Shown: positions 1 through 53,564 of the stretch, piece after piece
Layout: the number at the start of each line of letters is the position of its first letter
Position numbering within the stretch: position 1 is the first letter of the stretch
Source of the DNA: a virus
Lineage: Duplodnaviria > Heunggongvirae > Uroviricota > Caudoviricetes
Virus record (IMG/VR): IMGVR_UViG_3300035182_000695
Location: 26,755-90,754 of that record
Direction: 5' to 3' (one strand)
Length of the DNA: 64,000 nt
Translations under genes and position numbers: made by a program
Notes under the pieces: generated by a model
Seen by the model: only the letters and a program-made list of their open reading frames with translations
The model's database searches: none
What the model was told of the DNA's origin: nothing

Positions 1-119
1 ATAGAGTGTGGATTTGCGACTACTGTATGATGCCGCACGAAAGAGATGTCAACGCTGCAAAAAATATTAAACACTTCTGGCTTCGGAACAAGCCTGTAAA
101 CGCTAAAGTAATCCAGTAG
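1..119 (+). CDS. tnpB: C-terminal fragment of an IS200/IS605-family TnpB (OrfB); 5' part lies left of the window
   Basis: Frame 3 reads ...RVWICDYCMMPHERDVNAAKNIKHFWLRNKPVNAKVIQ*. CxxC...DRDVNAAxNI is the zinc-finger/RuvC-III tail of TnpB proteins; compare the C-terminus of the intact TnpB at 34665..35906 (CEACQLSLDRDLNAAINI). Confidence 0.55.
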   Translation, partial: RVWICDYCMMPHERDVNAAKNIKHFWLRNKPVNAKVIQ

Positions 120-180
120 GATACGCTTTGTTTATGAAATTTCATTTTGAAATAGTTCACTGGGTTAATTACGGCGATTA
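1..180 (+). mobile_element. Right part of an IS605-family (TnpB-only/IS1341-like) element, truncated by the window edge
   Basis: TnpB 3' end plus ~60 bp carrying small hairpins and the 9-mer ACGGCGATT (169-177). The same 9-mer recurs ~55 bp after the stop of the second TnpB (35958-35966), suggesting a shared right-end motif. Confidence 0.4.
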
Positions 181-196
181 ACTACAAATTTTAGCA

Positions 197-290
197 TTGT
201 TAATAACTATTTTCAAAATAAATTTGCAGGAATGAATTAATGTTGTACATTTGTGTAACATTTAAGTTAAACATCAGTAAAATCGAGACG
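197..290 (+). promoter_or_regulatory. Conserved promoter/leader element, copy 1 (Bacteroidota-type -33 TTTG, 19 bp spacer, -7 TACATTTG)
   Basis: TGTTAATAACTATTTTCAAAATAAATTTG(-33)...TACATTTG(-7) followed by conserved leader TGTAACATTTAAGTTAAACA. Near-identical copies at 8980, 14770, 21204 and 28130. Confidence 0.6.
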
Positions 291-291
291 A

Positions 292-3036: not shown

Positions 3037-3491
3037 TGAATACTAAAGAGAAAAAATTAGCTTCCGTCTTATTAGATATGGCAAGCTCAGAATTCGGGCA
3101 TCACGGCTGCAATGATGTAGATGAGAAAATATACGAAGGCTGGTCAATTGAAGAGCGTAGGGCGTTAGTTAAAGCGTTTCACGAATATAATGGCGACCCT
3201 CAAGAGTATGACGAAAATCATTTGCATATACCTGATTTTGCGTTAATGGGATTCTTCTCTGATAAACTTGAAAAAGAAAATCAAATCGATGTTGATTTAC
3301 CGACTGATTATATTACTGTTGATAGAATGTCTTCTTATAGCTTACTGAGAGATTACTTATTGCCTGACGACAAGAATATTGTTTTAAAAAACAGTAACGG
3401 TTCTGTAAACGGAGAGATGACAGAAGCATTAAGAGAGTTAGGAATATTGAATAAAAGAAAGTACGAGCTATTAGCTAAATTCAGAAAATAA
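3036..3491 (+). CDS. hypothetical protein
   Basis: 151-aa ORF; stop/start overlap ATGA with the neighbours. Confidence 0.55.
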   Translation: MNTKEKKLASVLLDMASSEFGHHGCNDVDEKIYEGWSIEERRALVKAFHEYNGDPQEYDENHLHIPDFALMGFFSDKLEKENQIDVDLPTDYITVDRMSSYSLLRDYLLPDDKNIVLKNSNGSVNGEMTEALRELGILNKRKYELLAKFRK

Positions 3492-3847
3492 TGGAACATT
3501 TATTCATACCATACGCATTATCAGTTACCGCAAAAGAAAAAGGATTTAACGCTGAGTGTTTTGGAATTCATACCGAAAATGGAATTTGGACTGTTCCAAC
3601 TACATCACAAACGCACTTCGATAATCAATTGTGTTCTGCGCCTATTTACCAACAGATAGTTGATTGGTTAGATGATAAGCATAAATTAAGAATTATTTTT
3701 TCGAGCTGTAAAACAAGTGGCAAATACAGGTACGATATAATTCAATTTGTAGGTGACAAATGGATTGGAGATTATAATTTAATTTCTTTTTATGACAGAA
3801 CGGAAATGAAAATCAAAGCTATACAAGAAGCACTAAAACTAATATAA
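3491..3847 (+). CDS. hypothetical protein, YQQIVDWL-family paralog 1
   Basis: 118 aa; MEHLFIPYALSVTAKEKGFN...APIYQQIVDWLDDKHKL. Member of a four-copy family with 3852, 10257 and 22442. Confidence 0.6.
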   Translation: MEHLFIPYALSVTAKEKGFNAECFGIHTENGIWTVPTTSQTHFDNQLCSAPIYQQIVDWLDDKHKLRIIFSSCKTSGKYRYDIIQFVGDKWIGDYNLISFYDRTEMKIKAIQEALKLI

Positions 3848-3851
3848 TACT

Positions 3852-4184
3852 ATGATAGAATTATTTGTACCGTATGATTTAGCATTATTAGCTAAAGAAA
3901 AAGGATTTAACTATAAAGTTATTGCAACATTCAACGCAGACAAAACAATACGTTTGTTTGACTACCAAATAGAGCGAAGTTCCGCATTAATCGCTCCTAT
4001 GTTTCAACAAATCGTTGATTGGTTAAGAACCAAGCACGAACTATACATAACTCAAGAGCCACACAAAGACGGTCAGTATTCGTTCTATTGTCAAACAGAA
4101 AACGGAATGATTGAAACTTATGGAGAGTATTACGAAGCGTTAAATGAAATGTTAACTGATATTTTAAAAATAACAATTAAATAG
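3852..4184 (+). CDS. hypothetical protein, YQQIVDWL-family paralog 2
   Basis: 110 aa; MIELFVPYDLALLAKEKGFN...APMFQQIVDWLRTKHEL. Tandem to paralog 1. Confidence 0.6.
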   Translation: MIELFVPYDLALLAKEKGFNYKVIATFNADKTIRLFDYQIERSSALIAPMFQQIVDWLRTKHELYITQEPHKDGQYSFYCQTENGMIETYGEYYEALNEMLTDILKITIK

Positions 4185-8965: not shown

Positions 8966-8979
8966 AAATTAACATTCAA

Positions 8980-9072
8980 TTGTTAATAACTATTTTCAAA
9001 ATAAACTTGTCAGTTCAAAAAATAGTTATACATTTGTGTAACGAATAAGTTAAACACTAGCAAAATCAGACA
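8980..9072 (+). promoter_or_regulatory. Conserved promoter/leader element, copy 2
   Basis: TTGTTAATAACTATTTTCAAAATAAACTTG ... TACATTTG(9028-9035) ... TGTAACGAATAAGTTAAACA; ATG at 9075. Confidence 0.55.
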
Positions 9073-9074
9073 TT

Positions 9075-9503
9075 ATGAAAAATCAAGACAAGTCAATTTA
9101 CAATTTAGATACAGTAGTATCTGTTAAAATAGTTGATAAGAAAAAATCACCTTATTTCGAGTTTAAACCATTCAAAAAGAGTTTCTTCGGGAACACAAAA
9201 GAAGGCTTCTATGATACTTTAGGATTCAGCGATGAGCCAATGACTAGAGAAAGTATTGAAACTGGCGTTTATAATAAAGGCGCTAACTACATACATAACG
9301 GAGCTGCTTATATTATTGAAAACAATGTGGTTTACTACAAACCGTATGTAAAAGTTACTCTTCAATCAGAAGAGGGTTTTGTTAGACAATTCGACACTTT
9401 CGATTCTGCTTTAGCTTACGGAAACAAAATTTCTGAAACCATCAAAAACAGAGTTGTTAAAAACGGCGATAAGTTCCAATTAAGCACTTCAAACGAAGAT
9501 TAA
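9075..9503 (+). CDS. hypothetical protein
   Basis: 142-aa ORF directly after the leader. Confidence 0.6.
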   Translation: MKNQDKSIYNLDTVVSVKIVDKKKSPYFEFKPFKKSFFGNTKEGFYDTLGFSDEPMTRESIETGVYNKGANYIHNGAAYIIENNVVYYKPYVKVTLQSEEGFVRQFDTFDSALAYGNKISETIKNRVVKNGDKFQLSTSNED

Positions 9504-9581
9504 CATATATTTCAGTACAAAAACGCTAAAAGCGTCTTAAAATCAAAATAAATCAAGTTAAATACTATAAAAACAAACAAA

Positions 9582-10136
9582 ATGACAAAGCAAATCTTAA
9601 ACATCTCAGAAAAACAAGAAGTGAATAATTATCCTTACGGAAGATTAAAAGCAACAGCATTCTTTTCAATTGAATTTGATTACAAAAAAGGGTTTCGTTC
9701 GGTATTTCAAACTATCAATCCGAAAACAAATAGATTAAACGCTGAAAAAAAATCAACATACTCTGCGTTTATGTGTCAGTTCAAAGAGGACGAAACTGGA
9801 CATATCAAAACAGCAACATCAAACCTAAGTAGCTATGAAGATGTTAATAAATTATTTGACTTCATTACAAAAAACCAAGACAAATTGCAACTTACAGAAA
9901 AAATGATTGAATCACTTTGCTTAGCTGCTATTGCTTGTACTAAAATAAACGCAAGATACACACCTTGTAATACAGAAAGTTTACTTAAAGTTTTAGATAC
10001 GCCTGTTAAAACTCTTGTTTCTATTGTTAAGAAAGAGGAAGGATTTTCTACTGCTGATGTTGTTATCGATATTTTTAAAATCGAAGAGTTAAAAGAACAA
10101 TTTAAAAACAGTAAAAATGCCGTTGCAAGTAATTAG
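9582..10136 (+). CDS. hypothetical protein
   Basis: 184-aa ORF. Confidence 0.55.
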   Translation: MTKQILNISEKQEVNNYPYGRLKATAFFSIEFDYKKGFRSVFQTINPKTNRLNAEKKSTYSAFMCQFKEDETGHIKTATSNLSSYEDVNKLFDFITKNQDKLQLTEKMIESLCLAAIACTKINARYTPCNTESLLKVLDTPVKTLVSIVKKEEGFSTADVVIDIFKIEELKEQFKNSKNAVASN

Positions 10137-10256: not shown

Positions 10257-10661
10257 ATGAGTAAGTTATATGTAACATTCGAGATTGCTAAAATTTTAAA
10301 ATCAATGCCGCAATTTGACGAGTCTTGTATTGTCTGCTACGAAGAGAGTGAGGATAATAAATTTGAATTAAGTAACTATGTTAATCAAACTGGTATTGTT
10401 ACTGGCGTTGAATGCGAGTTAGCCGCAGAAAATTGTTTTCCTGCTCCGACATACCAACAAGTTGTTGATTGGTTAATTGAAAAGCACGAAATTGAAGTTA
10501 ATGTTAAAAGCTGGAAAGGAGAAGGCGACGGAATTATAGTTTGGATTTTCTCAGTAAAGAAATTGGGAATGCCTTCAACTTATAGATTCGACACTAAATC
10601 TTTTAACAGAACCGAAGCTTGGATTAAAGCATTAACTCACGCATTAGAAAAAATAAAATAG
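10257..10661 (+). CDS. hypothetical protein, YQQIVDWL-family paralog 3
   Basis: 134 aa; ...PAPTYQQVVDWLIEKHEIEV. Confidence 0.55.
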   Translation: MSKLYVTFEIAKILKSMPQFDESCIVCYEESEDNKFELSNYVNQTGIVTGVECELAAENCFPAPTYQQVVDWLIEKHEIEVNVKSWKGEGDGIIVWIFSVKKLGMPSTYRFDTKSFNRTEAWIKALTHALEKIK

Positions 10662-10662
10662 T

Positions 10663-10923
10663 ATGGGCTACATTAAAAACTTAGAATTCATTTACAAAGA
10701 AACGATTGACCATTACGAATACAACAATGATGGATTTTCGGGTAAAATTAGAGTTAATCGCTCTCAAATGACTTACCAATACGATGTGTTTGATGTCATT
10801 CATAACAAACAAATTGTTTTCAATGTAGAAGAAGCGCACTTCATGGATTTAAAATCTATTTGCAATCAGATTGAAACAACAATAGCAGATTATAAACAAT
10901 TCCCCGAAGAATATATTGACTAA
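10663..10923 (+). CDS. hypothetical protein
   Basis: 86-aa ORF. Confidence 0.45.
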   Translation: MGYIKNLEFIYKETIDHYEYNNDGFSGKIRVNRSQMTYQYDVFDVIHNKQIVFNVEEAHFMDLKSICNQIETTIADYKQFPEEYID

Positions 10924-14733: not shown

Positions 14734-14744
14734 ATTTCTAACAT

Positions 14745-14835
14745 AAAATTGTTGATAAGTTCAATTAAAAATAATTTTGTTGATTCAAAAAGATGTTATA
14801 TATTTGTGTAACACTTTTAAGTTAAACATTACAGT
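14745..14835 (+). promoter_or_regulatory. Conserved promoter/leader element, copy 3 (upstream box diverged)
   Basis: TTTG(14776-14779), 19 bp, TATATTTG(14799-14806), leader TGTAACACTTTTAAGTTAAACA; ATG at 14836. Confidence 0.5.
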
Positions 14836-15168
14836 ATGACAATGACAGATAAAGACAGTTTTGATGCTGTTACTAAACGAAACAATTTTAATGTAGCCGC
14901 TCAAGAAGCAATATTTGAAGAGGTTTGCGACATTCTAAAATTAGATAAAGAAGATTTAATTAATTCGAGTAAACTGCTAATTATTTCATCTTTTGGAATT
15001 ATCGGAAAAACATTATGGGAAGTTGTCAATAATAGAATAAAGCACATAGGCAGAACCGAGACAGATGAAGTTTTTGAATTCATAAAGCTAACTGCTCTTA
15101 TGCTAGCTTGGCGAAAAGTAGAGCAAGAAGGATTTGAGAAAATTGATTTAAGATTAATACTAAACTAA
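14836..15168 (+). CDS. hypothetical protein
   Basis: 110-aa ORF after the leader. Confidence 0.55.
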   Translation: MTMTDKDSFDAVTKRNNFNVAAQEAIFEEVCDILKLDKEDLINSSKLLIISSFGIIGKTLWEVVNNRIKHIGRTETDEVFEFIKLTALMLAWRKVEQEGFEKIDLRLILN

Positions 15169-15477: not shown

Positions 15478-16377
15478 ATGGTAGAATTAAATTTAGTTCA
15501 CAAAAACAAGTCAGAGGTAGAATATACTGTAAGTAATTTTCCTGACACGCAAAAGCAAATTAAAATCGAAATATTTTGCAGTCTTAATTTACACAATTCA
15601 GCATACGATAAAATCGTTAATGAAGGCGTTGTAATTAAATCACGAATGTCTTGGGATGATGTGCAATTAATTATCGCAACAGTAAAAGCTTTAAGACAAC
15701 TAAAAGCTAAAGAAATACATTTATGCGTTCCTTACTTTCTAGGCGCAAGAAGTGATAGAAAATTCGAGCAAGGTTCAAATAATTATTTAAAAGATGTTAT
15801 TTGTCCAATTATAAACTCTTTGGAGTTGGATAGTGTTTCTGTACTAGACGCTCACAGCTTTGTGTTAGAAGCTTGTTTAAAGAACTTCCAGAGTGTTGAC
15901 AATTATCAATTAGTTAGGTACGCTCAAAACGATTTACTGAAAAAGAATGTTGATGCAGGTAAATCTACTCATCTAAACGATTTTATCTTAGTTGCTCCTG
16001 ATGCAGGTGCGTCTCACAAAATATATAAGCTAGCTGAAAATATTGGATATAAAGGCGAAATTATTATATGCAGTAAAGAAAGAGGTACTGACGGCAAGTT
16101 AAGTAAAACAGTTGTTCCTGATTTTGATTACTCGAAAGACATTGTAATTGTAGATGATATTTTTGATTATGGAAATACATTTATGAATATAGTTAAAGCT
16201 GTTAGTCATAAGACAAATGAATCAGTTAGTCCAATAGGTAAAAAATATTTAATAGTAACGCACGCTATTCAAGAAAAAGGATTGGAAGCTGCTTCTGAAT
16301 ACTTTAACACTATTTACACTACTAATTCGGTAAGAGAATTTGATTTACCGAAAGTTAAAATCTTAGATATATTTTAA
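15478..16377 (+). CDS. Prs-family phosphoribosyl-pyrophosphokinase homolog (PRPP synthetase-like; candidate ADPR-PP synthetase Adps of a NARP1 pathway)
   Basis: 299 aa; IHLCVPYFLGARSDRK (Prs: ITAVIPYFGYARQDRR), LVAPDAGASHKIYKLA (Prs: VVSPDIGGVVRAR), IVDDIFDYGNTF (Prs PRPP loop VLVDDMIDTGGT). Confidence 0.6.
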   Translation: MVELNLVHKNKSEVEYTVSNFPDTQKQIKIEIFCSLNLHNSAYDKIVNEGVVIKSRMSWDDVQLIIATVKALRQLKAKEIHLCVPYFLGARSDRKFEQGSNNYLKDVICPIINSLELDSVSVLDAHSFVLEACLKNFQSVDNYQLVRYAQNDLLKKNVDAGKSTHLNDFILVAPDAGASHKIYKLAENIGYKGEIIICSKERGTDGKLSKTVVPDFDYSKDIVIVDDIFDYGNTFMNIVKAVSHKTNESVSPIGKKYLIVTHAIQEKGLEAASEYFNTIYTTNSVREFDLPKVKILDIF

Positions 16378-16826: not shown

Positions 16827-18434
16827 ATGGAATTTTTAGAAATCTATTGGACCGACGTGTACAAAACAGGTCACAAACCAATGCTTCCAGTTGGAAGTAC
16901 ATTGATGGCTTCAAACAACACGCCTAGAAGCGACAAGAACACAAACTGCCCGAACAACGGAGAGCTAGTTGTTTTTGGAGGTCAAATGTTAGTTCGCAAA
17001 ATGAAAAGAGATTGGGACGTTAACTTCTTTCAACGACCTATTGAAGAGATTGATAAGTTTGGAGAAGACTTAACTAAAATGTTAATGCTATCTGAGCCTT
17101 ATGACACTACTCACTTTAAAGAGTTGCATCAATTAGGCTACTTGCCAGTAAGAATTAAATCAATGCCTGAGGGTAGTGTAGTGCCTTACAAAATACCTTC
17201 GTTCACTATTGTAAACACTCAGCCTTTAAATGGCGTTATTGTTGATTGGTTAGTGAATTATTTAGAAACAATTTTATCTGCTGAATCTTGGCAAGCGCCA
17301 ACATCTGCAACATTCTCTCGCTCTCTTAGAAAATTAGGAAAAGAGTGGATTATGAAAACTGATGAGAAAAATCTTTGGTTTTTAGATTATCAGTTTCACG
17401 ATTTCTCTATGCGTGGAATGGGCGGTAAATCCGCAATTGTGAATTCGGGTTTAGGGTTCGCAACTAGCTCAAGAGGTTCTGACACGCTTCCTGTTATTCC
17501 TGCCGCTCGAATGTACTATGATGAAGTTGAGCCTTGTATTAATTCAGTTATTGCGTCAGAACACGCTATTATGTGTTCCTTGACAGGCTTCTTTATGCAG
17601 AACTCGGACGGAAATTGGGATAAAGTTGCTGATTTTGAATATGAGATGTTTGTTTACTTGTTGAAGAAATTCCCTAACGGTATTTTATCTTTAGTAATGG
17701 ACACTTGGGATTTATGGAGAGCTATTACTCAGTATTGTGTTAGAGCAAAAGATATTATTATGGCTCGAAACGGTAAATTAGTAATTAGACCTGACTCAGG
17801 AAATCCTGCCGATATTATTTGCGGAATAAACAGTAAAGATAGTTTGAGTAGTGATGTTAAGTGCTTCGCTGATTTACATCACAAAGCGTATGGAGAAGGT
17901 GTTCATAAATTCGGCGGAGATATTATCAACGAGAATCAATTTAAAGGCGTTATAGAGCTTTTGTATGAAATATTTGGAGGAACTATAAATGAACAAGGGT
18001 ATAAAGTTTTAGATTCTCATATCGGCGCTATTTATGGAGACAGTATCAATTATAAAGCTGCTGTTGAAATATTCACTAGACTTGCTAAAAAAGGATTCGC
18101 TTCAACAAATATTGTTCTTGGCATCGGCTCTTACAGTTTGCAATTCGTAACGAGAGACACACACTCGATGGCTCAGAAAGCAACTTACATTGAAGTTTGC
18201 GGAAAAGGAATAGAAATCTTTAAAGACCCTATTACTGATGGCGGAATGAAAAAATCAGCTAAAGGATTATTAATGGTTTACAAAGATGATGCAGATGGAA
18301 AAATTAAGTTGAAGGACCAATGTACTTGGGAACAAGAGCGTCAAGGATTGCTTCAAGTTATATTTGAAGACGGTAAATTTTACAACGAAACAACTCTTAC
18401 TCAAATCAGAGAGAGATTAAATTCAACACTATAA
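16827..18434 (+). CDS. Nampt-family nicotinamide phosphoribosyltransferase homolog (NadV-like; candidate Namat of a NARP1 pathway)
   Basis: 535 aa; multiple blocks alignable to NAMPT: IKSMPEGSVVPYKIPSFTIVNTQP, FHDFSMRGMGG, VIRPDSGNPADII, GIGSYSLQFVTRDT, IEIFKDPITDGGMKKSAKGLL. Confidence 0.7.
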   Translation: MEFLEIYWTDVYKTGHKPMLPVGSTLMASNNTPRSDKNTNCPNNGELVVFGGQMLVRKMKRDWDVNFFQRPIEEIDKFGEDLTKMLMLSEPYDTTHFKELHQLGYLPVRIKSMPEGSVVPYKIPSFTIVNTQPLNGVIVDWLVNYLETILSAESWQAPTSATFSRSLRKLGKEWIMKTDEKNLWFLDYQFHDFSMRGMGGKSAIVNSGLGFATSSRGSDTLPVIPAARMYYDEVEPCINSVIASEHAIMCSLTGFFMQNSDGNWDKVADFEYEMFVYLLKKFPNGILSLVMDTWDLWRAITQYCVRAKDIIMARNGKLVIRPDSGNPADIICGINSKDSLSSDVKCFADLHHKAYGEGVHKFGGDIINENQFKGVIELLYEIFGGTINEQGYKVLDSHIGAIYGDSINYKAAVEIFTRLAKKGFASTNIVLGIGSYSLQFVTRDTHSMAQKATYIEVCGKGIEIFKDPITDGGMKKSAKGLLMVYKDDADGKIKLKDQCTWEQERQGLLQVIFEDGKFYNETTLTQIRERLNSTL

Positions 18435-18443
18435 AAACAATAC

Positions 18444-18477
18444 GGTCCTTGTGTAAAAGCAAGGACTGTTTTTAAAA
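18444..18477 (+). terminator. Rho-independent terminator after the Nampt-like gene
   Basis: GGTCCTTG-TGTAAAAG-CAAGGACT stem-loop followed by GTTTTT. Confidence 0.5.
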
Positions 18478-19372: not shown

Positions 19373-19582
19373 ATGAGACTAGATAATTTACAGTTCGCAA
19401 AAGACATAATGACTAAGCGATTAATAGAAGATAAGCAGTCAATGAAAGAGTGCTGCGAATTAATCGGCACGAGTCCTGCAACACTATCAAGAATTGAACG
19501 TGGCGCTATGCCTGAGCTAATAACTTACGCTAACATTTGCAAATGGCTCAATAAAGATTTAACTACTTATATAAAAGAATAA
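19373..19582 (+). CDS. XRE-family helix-turn-helix DNA-binding protein
   Basis: 69 aa; CCELIGTSPATLSRIERGAMPELITYANICKWL matches the HTH_3 pattern (xxxLAxxxGxSxxxxSxxERG). Confidence 0.5.
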   Translation: MRLDNLQFAKDIMTKRLIEDKQSMKECCELIGTSPATLSRIERGAMPELITYANICKWLNKDLTTYIKE

Positions 19583-21191: not shown

Positions 21192-21203
21192 TTAACAATC
21201 GAG

Positions 21204-21296
21204 TGTTAATAATTATTTTCAAAATAAATTTGCGCATCTGAATTAATGTTGTACATTTGTGTAACATTTAAGTTAAACACTATTAAAATCAAGGCA
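21204..21296 (+). promoter_or_regulatory. Conserved promoter/leader element, copy 4
   Basis: TGTTAATAATTATTTTCAAAATAAATTTG(21229-32)...TACATTTG(21252-59)...TGTAACATTTAAGTTAAACA. Confidence 0.6.
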
Positions 21297-28113: not shown

Positions 28114-28129
28114 ACAGATTAACAAATGG

Positions 28130-28224
28130 CTGTTAATAACTATTTTCAAAATAAATTTGCACATCTAAATTAATGTTGTATATTTGTGTAACATTTAAGT
28201 TAAACACTATTAAAATCAGACATT
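28130..28224 (+). promoter_or_regulatory. Conserved promoter/leader element, copy 5
   Basis: TGTTAATAACTATTTTCAAAATAAATTTG(28155-58)...TATATTTG(28179-86)...TGTAACATTTAAGTTAAACA; ATG at 28225. Confidence 0.6.
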
Positions 28225-28497
28225 ATGGCATTCGGCATTCAAGTAGATTTCGACAAAAATCAGATTACAATTCCAAGAGAATACTCAAGAATTGAGCCTG
28301 TGGATATTACTTCTTTTAAATTCGACAATGTTGTTGTTTTTACTAAAATAACAAATTACGAAATTGGTAAAATGACAATTGCAAGTATAATTGACATTAT
28401 TCAATTTTTAGGTGTTGAAAACAACTTAAAGATTTGTAAAAAAAGCGATTGGGATAAAGCTCAAGATAAATTAATTCAAGCAGTAAACAACAACTAA
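28225..28497 (+). CDS. hypothetical protein
   Basis: 90-aa ORF after the leader. Confidence 0.55.
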   Translation: MAFGIQVDFDKNQITIPREYSRIEPVDITSFKFDNVVVFTKITNYEIGKMTIASIIDIIQFLGVENNLKICKKSDWDKAQDKLIQAVNNN

Positions 28498-29881: not shown

Positions 29882-30142
29882 ATGAGAACGGAAGATTTTA
29901 ACCTTGATGAATTAATTGAAGCATTGACAGGAACAACTGAGTCAATTGCGCATTTTCTTCCTGACGGAATGGTTGAAGAAGACTTAACAGAAGAAGAAGT
30001 TCAACGCATAGACGAAGAAATATTTTTGTGCGCAACTTGCGGCTGGTGGTGTGAGATTTCTGAAAATGTAGAAAGCGACGATTCAGAACTTCATTGCAGA
30101 GATTGCAAAGATGAAGACTCTGATGACGAGGACGAAGATTAA
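29882..30142 (+). CDS. zinc-ribbon protein with an acidic tail
   Basis: 86 aa; CATCGWWC...CRDCKDEDSDDEDED. Confidence 0.45.
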   Translation: MRTEDFNLDELIEALTGTTESIAHFLPDGMVEEDLTEEEVQRIDEEIFLCATCGWWCEISENVESDDSELHCRDCKDEDSDDEDED

Positions 30143-32492: not shown

Positions 32493-32559
32493 AATATTCT
32501 TATCTAGCTATTCTAAAGATAGCAACTTTATATTAATTAAGTGAGAGAACCCATAGAGC

Positions 32560-32700
32560 AGCTTAGATAATCAAAGGATTTGGGGAAGCCTTTTATAAAG
32601 TAGATTTGATAGGATTGGCAACACGCACTCGAAGGCATAGTGCGTTTAAATGTCTAGTAGGCCTGTTCATCCACTAGCGGTTGCCAATTTAAAAACCATA
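32560..32700 (+). ncRNA. candidate structured non-coding element (nested hairpins, locally GC-richer)
   Basis: 323-bp ORF-free gap. TTGGCAAC[ACGCACT-CGAAGGCAT-AGTGCGT]TTAAATGT[CTAGT-AGGCCTGTTCATCC-ACTAG]CGGTTGCCAA forms two hairpins enclosed by an 8-bp closing stem. Confidence 0.2.
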
Positions 32701-32815
32701 GAGAAGTTTAACAAAGATGAATACAATAAACAACATAATTCTAATTGTGATAATTTGGGAAGTAGTTAAGTACTTTTTAAAGAAAGCGTTTTACAAAATA
32801 ATAAAGTAAATAAGT

Positions 32816-33247
32816 GTGGGCTTAGTAAATAAATATTCTTTTATATCAATGCGAAATAATCAAGTTACAGATGAGCAAATTTGTATTGGATTATTTTATA
32901 TGAATGAAACAGGCGTTGAGTTTAGATTCTCTGAAAAGAAAATTGAATTTACTAAAACATTAAATCCTGATGCTCATAGATTATTAGTTTTTTATGTTGA
33001 CCAAATGAAGCGTGCTGTTTTGTTAAAATCACTTACAATGCAGGAAGTAATTAATGAAGCTCACAGACAAAACGGAATCATTTATATTTCTGAGCCAAAA
33101 ATTATAAACATACAAGAGCCTTTAAATCTAATAAATGACAATAGCTCTTTTATAGGACGCTTTTTTGAAAAGAACGTAGATACACTACCGATTTTTAATA
33201 AAAATGAATCTGTTGGAATAAACATACATACAAAAAAAATAGGATAA
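32816..33247 (+). CDS. hypothetical protein
   Basis: 143-aa ORF; the true start may be the internal Met at ~32849. Confidence 0.45.
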   Translation: MGLVNKYSFISMRNNQVTDEQICIGLFYMNETGVEFRFSEKKIEFTKTLNPDAHRLLVFYVDQMKRAVLLKSLTMQEVINEAHRQNGIIYISEPKIINIQEPLNLINDNSSFIGRFFEKNVDTLPIFNKNESVGINIHTKKIG

Positions 33248-34491: not shown

Positions 34492-34559
34492 CTAAAAAAA
34501 AGATAGTATATTTGTAAATTTATTATATTTGTAGTGCGATAATAAAAAAACTAAAAATG

Positions 34560-35990
34560 ATTTTCAAAAAAAATATTTAAAAAAACGTCTTCAAGCAAGC
34601 AGGAACTCTCGTCATTTTTGGCTTTTGTTATCGCAAACCTGCTTGCGAGAAGGCTATTTATTCAATGTTAGTAAGCTCAAAGCATAGACTCGAACTCAAC
34701 AATAAGCAGAGAACACTAGCGTTTAAACACGCTGGAATAGCTAGACACGCTTGGAATTGGGGAGTTAAAATGTGTCAAGAAGCTTCTGAAAAAAGAGAGA
34801 AATTGCCGTCAGCAATGACGCTTCATAAAAAATTAGTTGCGGAAGTTAAAGTTGAAAACCCTTGGTATTATGAAGTTTCAAAGTGCGCTCCGCAAGAGTC
34901 TTTGAGAAATTTAGACGAGGCATGGCGTAATTATTTTCACAACTTAAAAAATGGAGCAATTCAGAAAAAGAAAAAATCATATATTTCAGAACGAAAACGA
35001 AAAGGATTGCCGATTAATACCAAAAAACTTTTCGACTTAGGTAAGCCAAATTTTAAGAAAAAAGGGATGCGTGATTCTTTTTGTTTAAACTCTCATGCAA
35101 TAAAAATATCAGGAAATAAAATCAAAGTTCCTATATTCGGTTGGCTTAAAATTAGTGAAAAATATAATGATAGTTTTATTATAAAAGGTGTGGTCATGTC
35201 AAGAACGGCTAACGATTGGTTTGTAAGTTTTCATAGAGAAGTTGATAATTTAAAAATTGAAGGAATTGAATCAAAGCCTAGTATCGGCGTTGATTTAGGA
35301 ATAAAAACTTTAGCGATTTTAAGTGATGGTGTTGAATTTAAAAATGTAAATGCTTTCGGGATAAATAAAAGAAAATTAAAATTAGCGCAAAGAAAACAAT
35401 CTAAAAATTTCAATAAAGACAGTAAAACACAGAGTAATAACTATAAAAAAGCAATTAAAAAAGTAGCGAAAATTTATCAAAGAATAGCAAATATTCGCAA
35501 AGATGCAACTCATAAATTAACAACATATCTTGCTAAGAACCACAGCCTGATAGGGATTGAAGATTTAAACGTGAGTGGAATGATGAAAAACAGAAAGCTA
35601 TCAAGCGCAATCGCTGATGGCGGATTTTACGAATTTCGCAGACAATTAGAGTATAAAACTCTTTGGTACGGCTCGAAATTAGTAGTAATCGACAGATTTT
35701 TTCCATCATCAAAAACTTGTTGTTGCTGCGGAAACATCAAAGAAAAATTAAAATTGTCAGAGCGAATATACGACTGCGAAGCTTGCCAATTGAGCTTAGA
35801 CAGAGATTTAAACGCTGCGATAAACATACAAAATTATGCGGTGAGTTACACCGTGAATGTCTGTGGAGAGTTACAAAAACAGTCGATTTCGACTGAAACT
35901 CAATGAAGCAGAAAGTAAACAGCAAAAATAAAACTTGCAAAAGTTTAGTATTGTATAAGTTTTGCGTAACGGCGATTTAAAAGAAAAGAA
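34560..35990 (+). mobile_element. IS200/IS605-family TnpB-only insertion element (IS1341-like)
   Basis: Intact tnpB flanked by a left hairpin GCAAGCAGG...CCTGCTTGC (34597-34652) and right-end hairpins plus the ACGGCGATT motif (35958-35966) shared with the truncated copy at 169-177. Boundaries approximate. Confidence 0.5.
34665..35906 (+). CDS. tnpB: TnpB (IS605 OrfB; RuvC-like nuclease with C-terminal zinc finger)
   Basis: 413 aa; N-terminal MLVSSKHRLELNNKQRTLAFKHAGIARHAWNWG (TnpB N-terminal consensus), GIEDLNVSGM (RuvC-II region), CCCCGNIKEKLKLSERIYDCEACQLSLDRDLNAAINI (zinc finger plus RuvC-III). Confidence 0.75.
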   Translation: MLVSSKHRLELNNKQRTLAFKHAGIARHAWNWGVKMCQEASEKREKLPSAMTLHKKLVAEVKVENPWYYEVSKCAPQESLRNLDEAWRNYFHNLKNGAIQKKKKSYISERKRKGLPINTKKLFDLGKPNFKKKGMRDSFCLNSHAIKISGNKIKVPIFGWLKISEKYNDSFIIKGVVMSRTANDWFVSFHREVDNLKIEGIESKPSIGVDLGIKTLAILSDGVEFKNVNAFGINKRKLKLAQRKQSKNFNKDSKTQSNNYKKAIKKVAKIYQRIANIRKDATHKLTTYLAKNHSLIGIEDLNVSGMMKNRKLSSAIADGGFYEFRRQLEYKTLWYGSKLVVIDRFFPSSKTCCCCGNIKEKLKLSERIYDCEACQLSLDRDLNAAINIQNYAVSYTVNVCGELQKQSISTETQ

Positions 35991-36016
35991 AATTACAATA
36001 ATAAAAATAAATAAAT

Positions 36017-42662: not shown

Positions 42663-43937
42663 TTAAACTATTTTAACATCATTTCCGCTTCTCCATAATG
42701 AATTGGCAGGTAGTCCAGCTGGCGTTCCTGGCAAGTCCATAACGATAGCGTTATTACTCAAATCAACTCTCAATAATGGCGTGTTTCCGAAAAATAAAAA
42801 ATCAACACCTGTTGCACTTACTTTTATTCCAGTACTATTAATTCCAATTAATACAGATTGATTAAATGATGCTCCCGACGCTGTATTATAAGTTCCTAAA
42901 ACAATCAAATCGCTTGTTGAAGATATATTATTTCCATTTCCGTAAATTCCACAATTACCCAATTGGTCTATTACGTTATTAACCCCCGCTAAAAGTAATC
43001 CGCTTGAGTTAGTTATTGTATTTCCTACGCCTAAAAGATTTACAAAAGATGAGTCTGATGAAAAATTACTTTCTCCTGTAATGTAACTTGATTGAACATT
43101 TGAAAATGTATTATAGTTTCCTAAGAAAGAAGTACTTGTAACATTCAATAATTCATTTGAATAACCGAAGTTAAAAAGACTACTTGAATTAGTAAAATGA
43201 TTGAATCTACCGAAATTAAATATAGACGAAGAATTATCTACTTGAGAATAATCACCAAAATTCCAAAAATCAGTTGCGTTCGTGAAATTATTCGCACCTC
43301 CAAAATTTATAACTATTAATGAATCCTCGAAAACATTTCCGCCATCTCCTAAGTAAGAAAATATATATTGATTAGAGCCGACTAATGTTCCAGTACCTCC
43401 AATATTATTCATAAAGAAATTTCCTAACGCATCTCTTGTTTTAAGAAACAATCCTGATACATCATTAATAGCGAATGTATTTGAGCCTAACGCATCTATT
43501 ACAGTAGGTTGTAATAATAAACCACCTAACTGAATTATACCGCCTGGCGCAACTAGCAAGCCGTTATTAGCTCCTGCTATTGCGCTAGCTCCGCCAATTC
43601 CTAATCCTGATGCTGCCCATTCATTTTGATTCGCTACATTGCATTTTATATTTGCCCCGTCTGTATTTACAACAATACTAGCTTGATTGTTTACAATATT
43701 TCCTAACGAAGCTGAGAGCGTTAAATTATTTAAGCTAAATCCTGCACCAACATCATTTATATAAACGCATCTCGAAGCATATAGCAATCCATTACTTTGA
43801 ATGTTTTGCAAAAATAAAGTAACTTCGCCTAAAGTAGTATCTACATTTATAACATCGTATGTATCCATAATTGCACCTGAGAAAGGTCCAGTTATTTGAA
43901 TTACATTTTTTGGCGATATATCATTCCCGTTTTTCAT
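42663..43937 (-). CDS. tail fibre / receptor-binding protein with shared N-terminal module
   Basis: 424 aa; the N-terminal ~120 aa are nearly identical to 53013..53564. Remainder G/N/S/T-rich with NN(I/V)xxxS repeats, beta-helix-like. Confidence 0.55.
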   Translation of the reverse strand: MKNGNDISPKNVIQITGPFSGAIMDTYDVINVDTTLGEVTLFLQNIQSNGLLYASRCVYINDVGAGFSLNNLTLSASLGNIVNNQASIVVNTDGANIKCNVANQNEWAASGLGIGGASAIAGANNGLLVAPGGIIQLGGLLLQPTVIDALGSNTFAINDVSGLFLKTRDALGNFFMNNIGGTGTLVGSNQYIFSYLGDGGNVFEDSLIVINFGGANNFTNATDFWNFGDYSQVDNSSSIFNFGRFNHFTNSSSLFNFGYSNELLNVTSTSFLGNYNTFSNVQSSYITGESNFSSDSSFVNLLGVGNTITNSSGLLLAGVNNVIDQLGNCGIYGNGNNISSTSDLIVLGTYNTASGASFNQSVLIGINSTGIKVSATGVDFLFFGNTPLLRVDLSNNAIVMDLPGTPAGLPANSLWRSGNDVKIV

Positions 43938-46425: not shown

Positions 46426-46764
46426 TTATTTGTTTGTATTCATTTTAATTGTGTTCAGTAAGTCCAATATTTTATCTTGCTTATCTTCGATTCTTGAAAC
46501 TCTGTCTTGTAAGTTAACTCTTTCAACTTCACTCATACCTTTGAATATAGCAATGTTTGCCATATCATTTTTAATTGAAACTACATCCGCTTTTATTTCT
46601 TTAATGTCAGAAGAGTGAATGTCTAGTGTTGATGACGTTTTATAATAAAATCCGTACCCAACTCCTAACGCAACTATTAATGCTGCTGTTAAACTCACTA
46701 CATTTGAAATTAGAGAGCTTTTTTTGATGTGGTTTTCTAGTGTTTGTGATGCTGTTGCGTCCAT
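46426..46764 (-). CDS. single-pass membrane protein
   Basis: 112 aa. Confidence 0.45.
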   Translation of the reverse strand: MDATASQTLENHIKKSSLISNVVSLTAALIVALGVGYGFYYKTSSTLDIHSSDIKEIKADVVSIKNDMANIAIFKGMSEVERVNLQDRVSRIEDKQDKILDLLNTIKMNTNK

Positions 46765-46809: not shown

Positions 46810-46911
46810 GTTGGAAAGGGCTAGCCCTTGAGAGAATCAACCCCGAAGGGCTAGTTCTTGAAAGGGTCAACCCCGAAAGGCTAGCCCTTGAAAGGGTCAA
46901 CCCTTTCCAAC
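46810..46911. repeat. GC-rich 3 x 30-bp tandem repeat, each unit carrying the palindrome AAGGGCTAGCCCTT, bracketed by inverted repeat GTTGGAAAGGG / CCCTTTCCAAC
   Basis: Units at 46816-45, 46846-75 and 46876-905. The only strongly GC-rich stretch in the window; intergenic between two minus-strand genes. Confidence 0.7.
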
Positions 46912-46927
46912 TAAATATTTCAATGTA

Positions 46928-47956
46928 CTAATTTTTTATTCTAACTCCTGAATCTTGTATTGCAATGTTTATTCCTTTAAATCCAACAACCGTCGGAGAT
47001 TGTCTTTCTACTCTCATTGATATTCTAAATATTTCAGAAAGTTCTCCGAATATTATCGGAGGTTGTCCTACTGCCGTATTTGGATTTTTTATTCCAATTG
47101 CTAATTTAAAATTCACAACTCTTTTTCCAAAATTACCGTGCTTTCCTTGAAATTTAAAAAAAGATATACTCTCATTTAATCTTGACGCATCAGGAACAAC
47201 CCATATTGGGCTAGGTCCACTTTGGTCTGAATATCTCATAAACTGCAAAGGATTAAAAGCTAGTAATGTTTTGTTGTATGCTCCTGCGCCGAACGTGTAT
47301 TCTGTATCTAACGGTATCGCTGTTGAGCCTGAATAAAAAGCGCCATTAGGAAAATTAATTCCGTCTTGATGCGTAGGATGATAGTATGAGCCTTTTTTAA
47401 ATTTTTTAGTTGGCACGCCTAGAATCTTCTTTCTGTAAGGTCTAGCAGTTCTTGCCATAAATAAATAATACTTAGGTTGATGTGATAAAAATGATTCCGA
47501 CTCTCCTGTGAAAGGCAAATAGAAAGAATATAAATCGTTATACAGATTAGAAGAATTGAATACTCCTATTTGAATTAAAGGCTTTGGTATAAATATTGAA
47601 CTAGATGAAGGTGTAGATGAGCCTTGAGCTAAAATACCGTATTCTGTTTGACTTGAAATAAATATTTCTATTTTACTTCCATTCTGATTCATTACATAAC
47701 TCGTCGTATTTTCAATTGTATTCGCAACAGTTGAAACAACAGTTATATTATTTGCAGAGGCATTATCGTCAGCATCATCTACAAATATTTTTGTAGATAC
47801 TGCGCAGCCAAAATTTATAATCTCAGGTAAATAAATAGTTATCGGACCAGTCGATGTTTTACATATAAAACGAATCTCGTTGTTTTGCAAGTTAAATTGA
47901 GCTGGACTAACTCTTAGTATATAATTTGTACCGCCTGGTATTGTAATGTAACTCAT
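46928..47956 (-). CDS. structural protein with the shared N-terminal module (tail-associated)
   Basis: 342 aa; N-terminus ...ILRVSPAQFNLQNNEIRFICKTSTGPITIYLPEI...NNITVVS follows the same pattern as 42663, 53013, 57608 and 59842. Confidence 0.5.
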   Translation of the reverse strand: MSYITIPGGTNYILRVSPAQFNLQNNEIRFICKTSTGPITIYLPEIINFGCAVSTKIFVDDADDNASANNITVVSTVANTIENTTSYVMNQNGSKIEIFISSQTEYGILAQGSSTPSSSSIFIPKPLIQIGVFNSSNLYNDLYSFYLPFTGESESFLSHQPKYYLFMARTARPYRKKILGVPTKKFKKGSYYHPTHQDGINFPNGAFYSGSTAIPLDTEYTFGAGAYNKTLLAFNPLQFMRYSDQSGPSPIWVVPDASRLNESISFFKFQGKHGNFGKRVVNFKLAIGIKNPNTAVGQPPIIFGELSEIFRISMRVERQSPTVVGFKGINIAIQDSGVRIKN

Positions 47957-53012: not shown

Positions 53013-53564
53013 CTAGTTACAATATACCCAACCTGTTGTTGGTTTATTAAGTGTTATTATTACTTCATTGTTATCACTCCAAAAAACTTTAGCTAGTATC
53101 TCATTGAACAAATCATCAACGACTTGAACAGAACAACGCTTATTTAAGTTATGAGAAACATTCCAAGTTGTTGAAGGTGCGACTTGATGAAACACGAAAT
53201 TTTTATCGCCTGTTACCGGCGGCGTAACTAATAAACCAGATACAGTCCATTCGTTTTGACTAGCTACATTGCATTTTAAATTAGCTCCATCGCTAGTTAT
53301 TACAATACTAGGGTTATTGTTTACTAAATTGCCTAAAGAGCCTACTATTGTAAGATTATTTGTGCCGAATGTATTTGTAACATCGTTTATGTAAACGCAA
53401 CGAGAAGCGTAAAGTAAATTTCCGCTTTGAATGTTTTGTAAAAATAAAGTTACTGGACCAAGAGTTGTATCAACATTAATGACATCATAAGTATCCATTA
53501 TAGCACCCGAAAATGGTCCTTTTATTTGGATTACATTTTTGGGTGATATATTGTTTTGATTCAT
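53013..53564 (-). CDS. short tail fibre / receptor-binding protein with shared N-terminal module
   Basis: 183 aa; the N-terminal 120 aa are ~85% identical to 42663..43937 (MxxxNISPKNVIQIxGPFSGAIMDTYDVINVDTTLG...). Confidence 0.55.
   Translation of the reverse strand: MNQNNISPKNVIQIKGPFSGAIMDTYDVINVDTTLGPVTLFLQNIQSGNLLYASRCVYINDVTNTFGTNNLTIVGSLGNLVNNNPSIVITSDGANLKCNVASQNEWTVSGLLVTPPVTGDKNFVFHQVAPSTTWNVSHNLNKRCSVQVVDDLFNEILAKVFWSDNNEVIITLNKPTTGWVYCN

Follow-up and report, generated by a model that had tools for sequence, protein, structure and literature searches.

A repeated cassette in a large uncultured phage that most likely serves as a Bacteroidota-type promoter ahead of runs of small genes

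Why would a phage keep near-identical copies of a ~95-bp sequence ahead of successive runs of small genes? We addressed this question in a 64,000-nt stretch of viral DNA (hereafter the window), which has 32% GC and comes from a contig of 146 kb. Up to ~40.5 kb, the window is densely filled with small + strand genes, and - strand genes follow. A first-pass annotation had read the repeat as a promoter of the Bacteroidota sigma-A type with a conserved transcribed leader, and had suggested that the surplus conservation might reflect a transcription factor site or an RNA motif, and that the repeats could be substrates for recombination. Judging from sequence comparisons, the cassette is most likely a Bacteroidota-type promoter that heads each run of small genes, with further conserved blocks that distant relatives have as well.

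A search of the window with a profile of the copies recovered five cassettes (E = 1e-16 to 3e-27), and no further match below E = 0.8. All lie on the + strand, at 186..291 (directly 5' of ATG 292), 8969..9074 (preceding gene 9075-9503), 14738..14835 (preceding gene 14836-15168), 21192..21296 and 28119..28224 (preceding gene 28225-28497). The gene after copy 4 was listed with a start at ATG 21246, which falls within the promoter; it most likely starts at ATG 21297. Exact motif counts gave the same picture: TANATTTGTGTAAC and TAAGTTAAACA each occur five times in the window, always inside a cassette copy, and the 25-nt A/T box, with up to 3 mismatches allowed, occurs 4 times vs 0.00 expected. The five copies initially described are thus borne out, at the positions given for them. 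Their number holds for the window but not for the genome: a sixth copy lies ~6.3 kb upstream of the window, at 3208-3300 of a contig that overlaps the window start (L092), and five is therefore a minimum count, the phage having at least six. The copies all point in the direction of the genes. Each of the five fills a gap of ~100 nt ahead of a + strand gene run, and these gaps are among the few sizeable ones of the first 32 kb.

The copies are unequally preserved. Copy 3 is the most divergent, with several mismatches and a 1-nt insertion in the A/T box and a 2-nt insertion in the leader. Copy 1 is unlike the others in its distal part because a TnpB-type element terminates just upstream. A probable decayed cassette is found at 9504..9581 (+ strand), with ATTAACA, a mutated box (TATATTTC), a small hairpin (ACGCTAAAAGCGT) and a leader-like remnant (AAGTTAAATACTAT) at 9555; it precedes gene 9582-10136, whose homologue in another phage (L103, see below) carries a full cassette. 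The phage genome harbors two IS605-family elements that carry TnpB only, one that terminates at the window start (8413-9447 of L092; window 1-180) and one at window 34515-36016. The first shows the 3' end of its gene at 1-117 (...HERDVNAAKNIK...) and adjoins cassette copy 1, and the gene of the second spans 34665-35906. Upstream, the two flanks (5') match at 84% across 146 nt and have TATATTTG boxes of their own, while ACGGCGATT is present downstream of both (at 171 and 35969).

In F. johnsoniae, the -7 element is TAHHTTTG (T-12 A-11 T-8 T-7 T-6 G-5; Baez et al., PMC6847099), transcription starts 4-5 nt past this box, the -33 element TTTG is weaker and A/T-rich tracts are present (PMC6847099). 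Leaders average 33 nt in this species, lack Shine-Dalgarno sites and favour A at position -3 (PMC6847099). The cassette agrees with this Bacteroidota type in anatomy, orientation, position and conservation pattern, which upholds its assignment as a sigma-A-type promoter with a 5' leader. The -7 element of copy 1, TACATTTG, is at 246..253 on the + strand (equivalents at 9029-9036, 14799-14806, 21252-21259 and 28179-28186). All five fit TAHHTTTG, and the element reads TACATTTG or TATATTTG (TAYATTTG) in all six copies of the phage and in seven copies of its relatives. The -33 element TTTG is at 223..226 (+ strand) in copy 1 and at 14776-14779, 21229-21232 and 28156-28159 in copies 3 to 5; TTTG had been claimed for every copy, which is true of four, copy 2 having CTTG (9006-9009). 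Between the two elements, every window copy has a spacer of exactly 19 nt (first given as 18-20 bp) and relatives have one of 18-22 nt, where about 19-21 nt is expected of this promoter type. Conservation scores are 0.96 for each of the -33 and -7 elements vs 0.72 for the spacer sequence. This block-wise conservation, with a spacer of fixed length and variable sequence, is the pattern typical of promoters and not that of a recent duplication.

The transcription start was predicted by the 4-5 nt rule of PMC6847099. An A is present 4 nt past the -7 box in every copy, and we take it as the putative start (258 on the + strand in copy 1; equivalents at 9041, 14811, 21264 and 28191). The predicted leaders of copies 1 to 5 are then 34, 34, 25, 33 and 34 nt long. 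Their conserved part ends 7-18 nt before the ATG, closer than the 12-25 bp initially proposed. On the + strand of the tightly packed 32-kb block, the cassettes are the sole intergenic matches to TTG-N17-21-TAnnTTTG; a sigma-70 consensus scan of the window returned 80 sites vs 85.5 expected and is uninformative here. A second TAnnTTTG-like box, TAAATTTG, is found at 219-226 (+ strand), at the end of the A/T box, and its TTTG doubles as the main -33 element. A tandem upstream promoter at this box is possible in this phage but was ranked secondary because copy 2 has a mismatch at a key T and the relatives are without the box.

Sequence signatures point indirectly to a probable Bacteroidota host: a Shine-Dalgarno core is found in only 7 of 129 window genes, A occupies -3 in 81%, and GC is 32%. 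A host scan via the TnpB gene yielded no host, its best matches being at most 49% identical and mostly cyanobacterial. Genes identified in the units that follow the cassettes encode an RNA ligase, a NAMPT, a PRPP-synthetase-like protein, a phosphatase, a DNA methylase, a gp17-like exclusion protein and an SPFH protein; most other unit ORFs that were scanned had no family match in Pfam or PHROG. The NAD salvage pair consists of the PRPP-synthetase-like gene at 15478-16377 (a weak Pfam match) and the NAMPT gene at 16827-18434 (phrog_448, E = 1.7e-160), the latter followed by a GC-rich hairpin with a T run at 18445-18466. A related phage, L011, has an NMNAT-like gene, and NAD salvage genes may counter NAD-depleting defences. 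Three paralogous small genes of the + strand block (3491-3847, 3852-4184 and 10257-10661) share DNA repeats (families D6, D8 and D12); this family has a homologue in L011 and has expanded within the block.

The - strand block (40500-64000) has a different aspect. No full TTG-N17-21-TAnnTTTG is present on its coding strand, and a single intergenic TAnnTTTG is found, at ~53840. The missing full -33/-7 combination weakly fits a different promoter class for late genes. Six of the largest - strand ORFs, presumed structural, had no Pfam match and a single weak PHROG match of unknown function, and tblastn of two of these proteins (631 aa and 342 aa) against GenBank phages gave no match. No RNA polymerase or sigma domain was detected among the window ORFs scanned with Pfam and PHROG, the largest included (64 of 146 kb). 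Two stretches of ~130 nt in 43602-43921 and 53232-53551 are repeated 9630 nt apart with 73-82% identity inside - strand genes (D3, D4) and probably encode a common protein domain. A tandem array of three 30-nt repeats, which include GC-rich palindromes (AAGGGCTAGCCCTT), occupies 46816-46905 of the - strand transcript, between the genes 46928-47956 and 46426-46764 of that strand; the repeats fold at -52 kcal/mol (z = -4.7) and may form a terminator or processing array behind a highly expressed structural gene.

Conservation of the cassette extends past the -33 and -7 elements on both sides, as was first noticed, and takes the form of three blocks. The upstream A/T block (-60 to -36; 198..222 on the + strand in copy 1, with + strand equivalents starting at 8981, 14750, 21204 and 28131) holds TGTTAATAAC and an UP-element-like tract, TATTTTCAAAATAAA. 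TGTTAATAAC is held at -59 to -61 in three phages, within an UP-element-like A/T tract, and together with an upstream arm forms TTAACA-N6-TGTTAA in several copies. An imperfect palindrome, ATGTTGTACA-TT-TGTGTAACAT, spans the -7 box and the predicted start (240..261 on the + strand in copy 1; + strand equivalents at 9023-9044, 14793-14814, 21246-21267 and 28173-28194). Its core, GTTRTAYA-TT-TGTRTAAC (8+2+8), is imperfect in the window phage and perfect in the relatives L109, L110 and L128; over 13 copies, GTTaTA.ATTTGT.TAAC is near-invariant from -16 to +2. Downstream, a leader block, AAGTTAAAC, occupies +7 to +15 (264..272 on the + strand in copy 1; equivalents at 9047-9055, 14819-14827, 21270-21278 and 28197-28205). 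Its consensus is AAGTYAAAC, with the form AAGTTA(GCAGTY)AAAC in relatives, and it sits 15-19 nt 5' of most ATGs.

The alignments show that the three extra blocks are under selection; by which mechanism is a separate matter. Because the blocks are palindromic, a transcription factor site is plausible; no observation ties it to the XRE or zinc-finger proteins named at first. Palindrome pairing holds in 88% of cells vs 17-60% in slid controls, and in 88% on the + strand vs 76% on the - strand, a difference made up of three one-sided transitions. In the 8-bp palindrome core, no compensatory changes were found, and shuffles equal the real pairing in 298 of 500 cases. The same 18-mer core also turns up in low-GC viral contigs that are unrelated, at sites resembling promoters, and may thus be a generally favoured promoter context rather than an operator. 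A search for a regulator among the scanned ORFs returned a single HTH candidate (19373-19582), borderline at 22.7 bits vs a cut-off of 23.

At the RNA level, structure in the leader was indistinguishable from shuffled controls (z = -0.01 to +0.77) and the whole window gave 0 Rfam matches at gathering thresholds. The idea that the leader holds a structural RNA motif is thus unsupported, and a structured cis-regulatory leader RNA (riboswitch, attenuator) was rejected, with no fold beyond shuffles and no Rfam family. All 7 copies that were folded give a predicted hairpin over the -7 box, which is weak (-4 to -8.7 kcal/mol, z +0.24 to -3.6); as a + strand feature it is possible, with one-sided transitions and no covariation. 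A sigma-dependent pause at TAAGTT was dropped because the TA is missing in L109 and L110. Elsewhere, the 356-nt gap at 32493-32848 was considered as a non-coding RNA and discarded (z = -0.06, no tRNA or Rfam match); this gap is locally GC-rich with nested inverted repeats.

Is the cassette a peculiarity of this phage? Its absence from related phages had been named beforehand as an argument against the element; in fact, four distantly related uncultured phages carry it, L103, L109 (3 copies), L110 (2) and L128. L103 came from a scan of a single metagenome, being the sole relative among 10 matches, L109 and L110 were found via the protein family of gene 9582-10136 and L128 via IMG/VR. An exact-motif scan of IMG/VR returned 0 matches, and a degenerate scan returned 116, nearly all due to chance, with L128 alone convincing. 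In L103, TTTG-N20-TATATTTGTGTAACAATTTTAAGTTAAAC lies ahead of a 40%-identical homologue of gene 9582-10136. Copy 5 has positional orthologues in L109 (~7967) and L110 (~7853): in all three phages, the site lies between a DUF3846 gene and homologues of the genes 28225, 28499 onward. Proteins around this orthologous site are 27-44% identical among the phages. Between phages, identity of the cassette DNA ranges from 66% to 74% and reaches 97% within a 32-nt core, vs 57-67% for the best-conserved genes. An 86-aa, very acidic protein encoded at 29882-30142, with two CxxC pairs (zinc-ribbon-like) and no Pfam match, is the best-conserved small protein of the cassette-bearing relatives (51-59% identity in L103, L109 and L110).

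Further away, the cassette is absent from distant carriers of the 184-aa protein family (L106, L107 and L227-L230; GC 39-45%). The single homologue found for the first gene is on L011. L011, 46% identical in one protein, has a two-copy cassette of its own at 3300-3396 and 10725-10816, AACATTTAGTTGTATATATGCGTATAAMCWTGTATATTTGTTATCGTAAATG..., which fills both gaps and combines TATATTTG with a AAGTCAAAC-like leader; the sequence differs and the plan is shared. Comparisons with GenBank phages by megablast (9.2 kb) and blastn (the element) gave no useful match, the sole matches being 60 nt at 77% identity in two records of a 735-kb uncultured phage, and none of four window proteins had a tblastn match in cultured phages.

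The copies also bear marks of exchange. Their spacers pair copy 0 (the upstream copy) with copy 1 (18/19) and copy 4 with copy 5 (17/19), while the 3' leaders pair copy 0 with copy 4 (18/19) and copy 2 with copy 5 (17/19), and the A/T box is identical between copies 1 and 2; exact runs common to copies range from 11 to 50 nt. Such mosaic segments indicate, at the level of the sequence, recombination between copies. In addition, gene order in the early region differs among the window, L109 and L110, where it appears shuffled, and an extra ORF directly follows the orthologous cassette of L110. All ten metagenomic variant contigs are 100% identical to the window. The suggestion that the repeats could act as recombination substrates gains indirect backing from the mosaic similarity, and they may shuffle modules. 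Independent assemblies break inside cassettes, at window 244 and 14811 (the ends of L093, L094 and L006), as the repeats fragment short-read assemblies.

Taken together, we consider it likely (probability of about 0.7) that each copy is a transcription-initiation cassette for the host primary RNA polymerase holoenzyme of the Bacteroidota sigma-A type. Sigma would engage TTTG at -33 and TAYATTTG at -7, 19 nt apart, and transcription would start at the A 4 nt past the box, producing an A/U-rich, unstructured leader of 25-34 nt without Shine-Dalgarno site, as used by Bacteroidota ribosomes. With this role, the copies would head successive 4-9 kb units of small, mostly unknown genes. These units most likely hold host-takeover or early genes, and an early timing is a reasonable presumption from the intact host elements and the gene content. 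As for the extra blocks, our best guess is that a dimeric DNA-binding protein would use the palindromic ones as operators and so control, for all units jointly, how strongly or when they are transcribed; in this preferred reading, the bound protein would be placed to occlude or assist the RNA polymerase. The leader block could be a further DNA site or act at the RNA level, in translation or stability. Exchange of sequence would preserve the likeness of the copies and could relocate gene modules, as happens with PeSL in T4-type phages. A fuller version of this model, in which the three blocks, all with GTTA/TAAC-type half-sites, would form one module for a dedicated phage protein or a hijacked host protein that switches all units jointly, and in which the cassettes would double as PeSL-like recombination linkers, is a tentative proposal that we think less likely than not.

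Other explanations share some of this evidence. The cassettes could be promoters that owe their length and similarity chiefly to recombination or gene conversion among the copies, as in PeSL: in evolution, they would then serve mainly as mobile, portable patches of homology that insert, delete and shuffle modules, and no regulator would be dedicated to the extra blocks. We regard this as a real possibility, if not the favoured one. It would account for the mosaic segments with exact common runs of 11-50 nt, for the shuffled early gene order of the window, L109 and L110 with the extra ORF after the L110 cassette, for a decayed cassette before gene 9582 where the L103 homologue has a full one, and for each lineage, L011 included, having its own cassette version, and there is precedent (PMC2839356, PMC4122927). 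Nevertheless, the core, the blocks and the orthologous site are kept in phages with 27-58% protein identity, a retention for which concerted evolution inside one genome is insufficient. Moreover, the metagenomic variants, all 100% identical to the window, offer no comparison for cassette-bounded indels, and the stem-loops are weak, AT-rich and unlike PeSL terminators. At the other extreme, neutral recent duplications or a miniature mobile element without regulatory role would explain why a sequence is repeated and causes assembly breaks. This is highly improbable given the single orientation, the invariable position directly 5' of a start codon, the block-wise conservation with a variable spacer of fixed length and the maintenance of the cassette in distant relatives, with orthologous copies; no inverted repeat joins the two ends of the element. 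A MITE-like repeat was rejected on the same points of orientation, position at start codons and lack of terminal inverted repeats.

It could also be asked whether the host polymerase, in its ordinary form, is the reader. Compact promoters are typical of single-subunit phage polymerases, and the cassette core resembles them. The near-invariant stretch from -16 to +2, contiguous across the start site, might thus be read by a phage RNA polymerase, or by a host polymerase redirected by a phage sigma factor or activator, in which case the units would be middle rather than immediate-early. Extended tripartite motifs do mark middle promoters in the Bacteroidota phage phi14:2, and ~82 kb of the 146-kb genome lie beyond the window that was scanned. 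Still, this seems improbable to us: the phi14:2 motifs are read by host RNA polymerase, the scanned window ORFs contain no polymerase or sigma domain, and the host -33 and -7 elements are intact, with the distance of the -33 TTG kept across divergent spacers in all phages, for which a foreign polymerase would have no need. For the leader block, the alternative is action in the mRNA rather than in DNA, AAGTYAAAC and the 15-19 nt to the ATG forming a site for a translational repressor or activator (RegA-like, as on T4 early mRNAs) or a signal for stability or processing. AAGTYAAAC is indeed within the predicted transcript of every copy, at 15-19 nt from the ATG in most copies across phages, and is conserved where the surrounding leader is not. 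This role is rather doubtful, however, as the leader has neither secondary structure nor an Rfam family, and the ATG is 8 nt away in copy 3 and overlaps the motif in L109 copy c. The distance of the block from the start site is just as constrained as that from the ATG, so that action on DNA and action on RNA look alike in these data.

For Bacteroidota phages other than the crAss-like ones, experiments have revealed next to nothing on the organisation of transcription. The cassette offers a concrete candidate promoter and operator for a clade of large uncultured phages without cultured relative, and it delimits units with likely host-takeover and counter-defence genes, among them those for NAD salvage. 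In Bacteroidota genetics, it could be put to use as a short and strong promoter. Its principle is known from T4, where extended promoters for the host polymerase are repeated and possibly serve as recombination linkers, so that known biology is extended here rather than overturned. Should a dedicated regulator and a linker function prove true, they would amount to a coordinated temporal switch combined with module shuffling in large Bacteroidota phages of a clade not characterised before. Of all parts, the conserved blocks that lack an explanation most deserve attention.

How does the cassette compare with known systems? Bacteroidota sigma-ABfr promoters (-33 TTTG / -7 TAnnTTTG, PMC6847099) match it in both elements and their spacing, in the A start 4 nt past the box (predicted here), in the A/T-rich spacer near -18, in the ~33-nt leader without Shine-Dalgarno site and in the A-rich start context. 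Ordinary Bacteroidota host promoters, however, are not reported to share ~95 bp: the cassette adds the -60 block, the palindrome and the leader block and, unlike them, repeats these within one genome and has them in common with relatives. PeSL of T4-type phages (PMC2839356, PMC4122927) are likewise intergenic repeats of ~100 bp and composite build, A/T-rich in their upstream part and equipped with a strong host-sigma promoter. In both, an inverted repeat may overlap the -10/-7 box (with G-T pairs), the element ends at a start codon, and it is set among small orphan genes, with hints that copies exchange sequence. Indels or replacements bounded by cassettes, and mini-circles, mark PeSL; the observations on this point are here the mosaic segments and the extra ORF of L110. 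The two differ in the type of host promoter, PeSL units are single ORFs vs 4-9 kb here, and PeSL have GGGG...CCCC terminators vs the weak AT-rich repeats of the cassette (-4 to -8.7 kcal/mol). Specifically, the hairpin over the -7 box shows no covariation and is not followed by a U tract, and the distal TTAACA-N6-TGTTAA arms make 6-7 AT-rich pairs. No similarity to T4-like phages was detected with Pfam and PHROG on the six large - strand ORFs or by tblastn of two of them. With the stem-loop and terminator lacking and the phage not being T4-like, the cassette is an analogue of PeSL and not a member.

Promoters of phage polymerases (T7-like, or N4-like with a hairpin) are devoid of host sigma elements, whereas the cassette keeps both at a fixed spacing. 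In cluster K mycobacteriophages, SAS/ESAS are short conserved repeats just 5' of many starts with a suspected role in expression; SAS are 13-bp motifs that adjoin the start codon and are not promoters, while the leader block is 15-19 nt upstream, inside a promoter cassette. The tripartite middle promoters of the crAss-like phage phi14:2 (10.1101/2020.03.07.982082) are also similar: in this Bacteroidota phage, a motif longer than the two sigma elements is repeated, and this extended motif is read by host RNA polymerase and conserved among related phages (10.1101/2020.03.07.982082). They differ in being middle/late promoters of a phage with a virion RNA polymerase, and the likeness is one of description, with no evident genetic relationship. 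The extended early promoters of T4 and other large lytic phages (PMC2988021 and general knowledge), which drive prereplicative genes, resemble the cassette in that a host-sigma promoter is present many times and conserved past its hexamers, with UP-like tracts rich in A/T from -40 to -60; their consensus is another one, and in the cassette conservation also takes in the start site plus ~15 nt at the beginning of the transcript. By analogy, extended T4 early promoters and PeSL cassettes are its closest counterparts, and the cassette would function as an extended phage promoter for the host polymerase, an ordinary kind of phage regulatory repeat.
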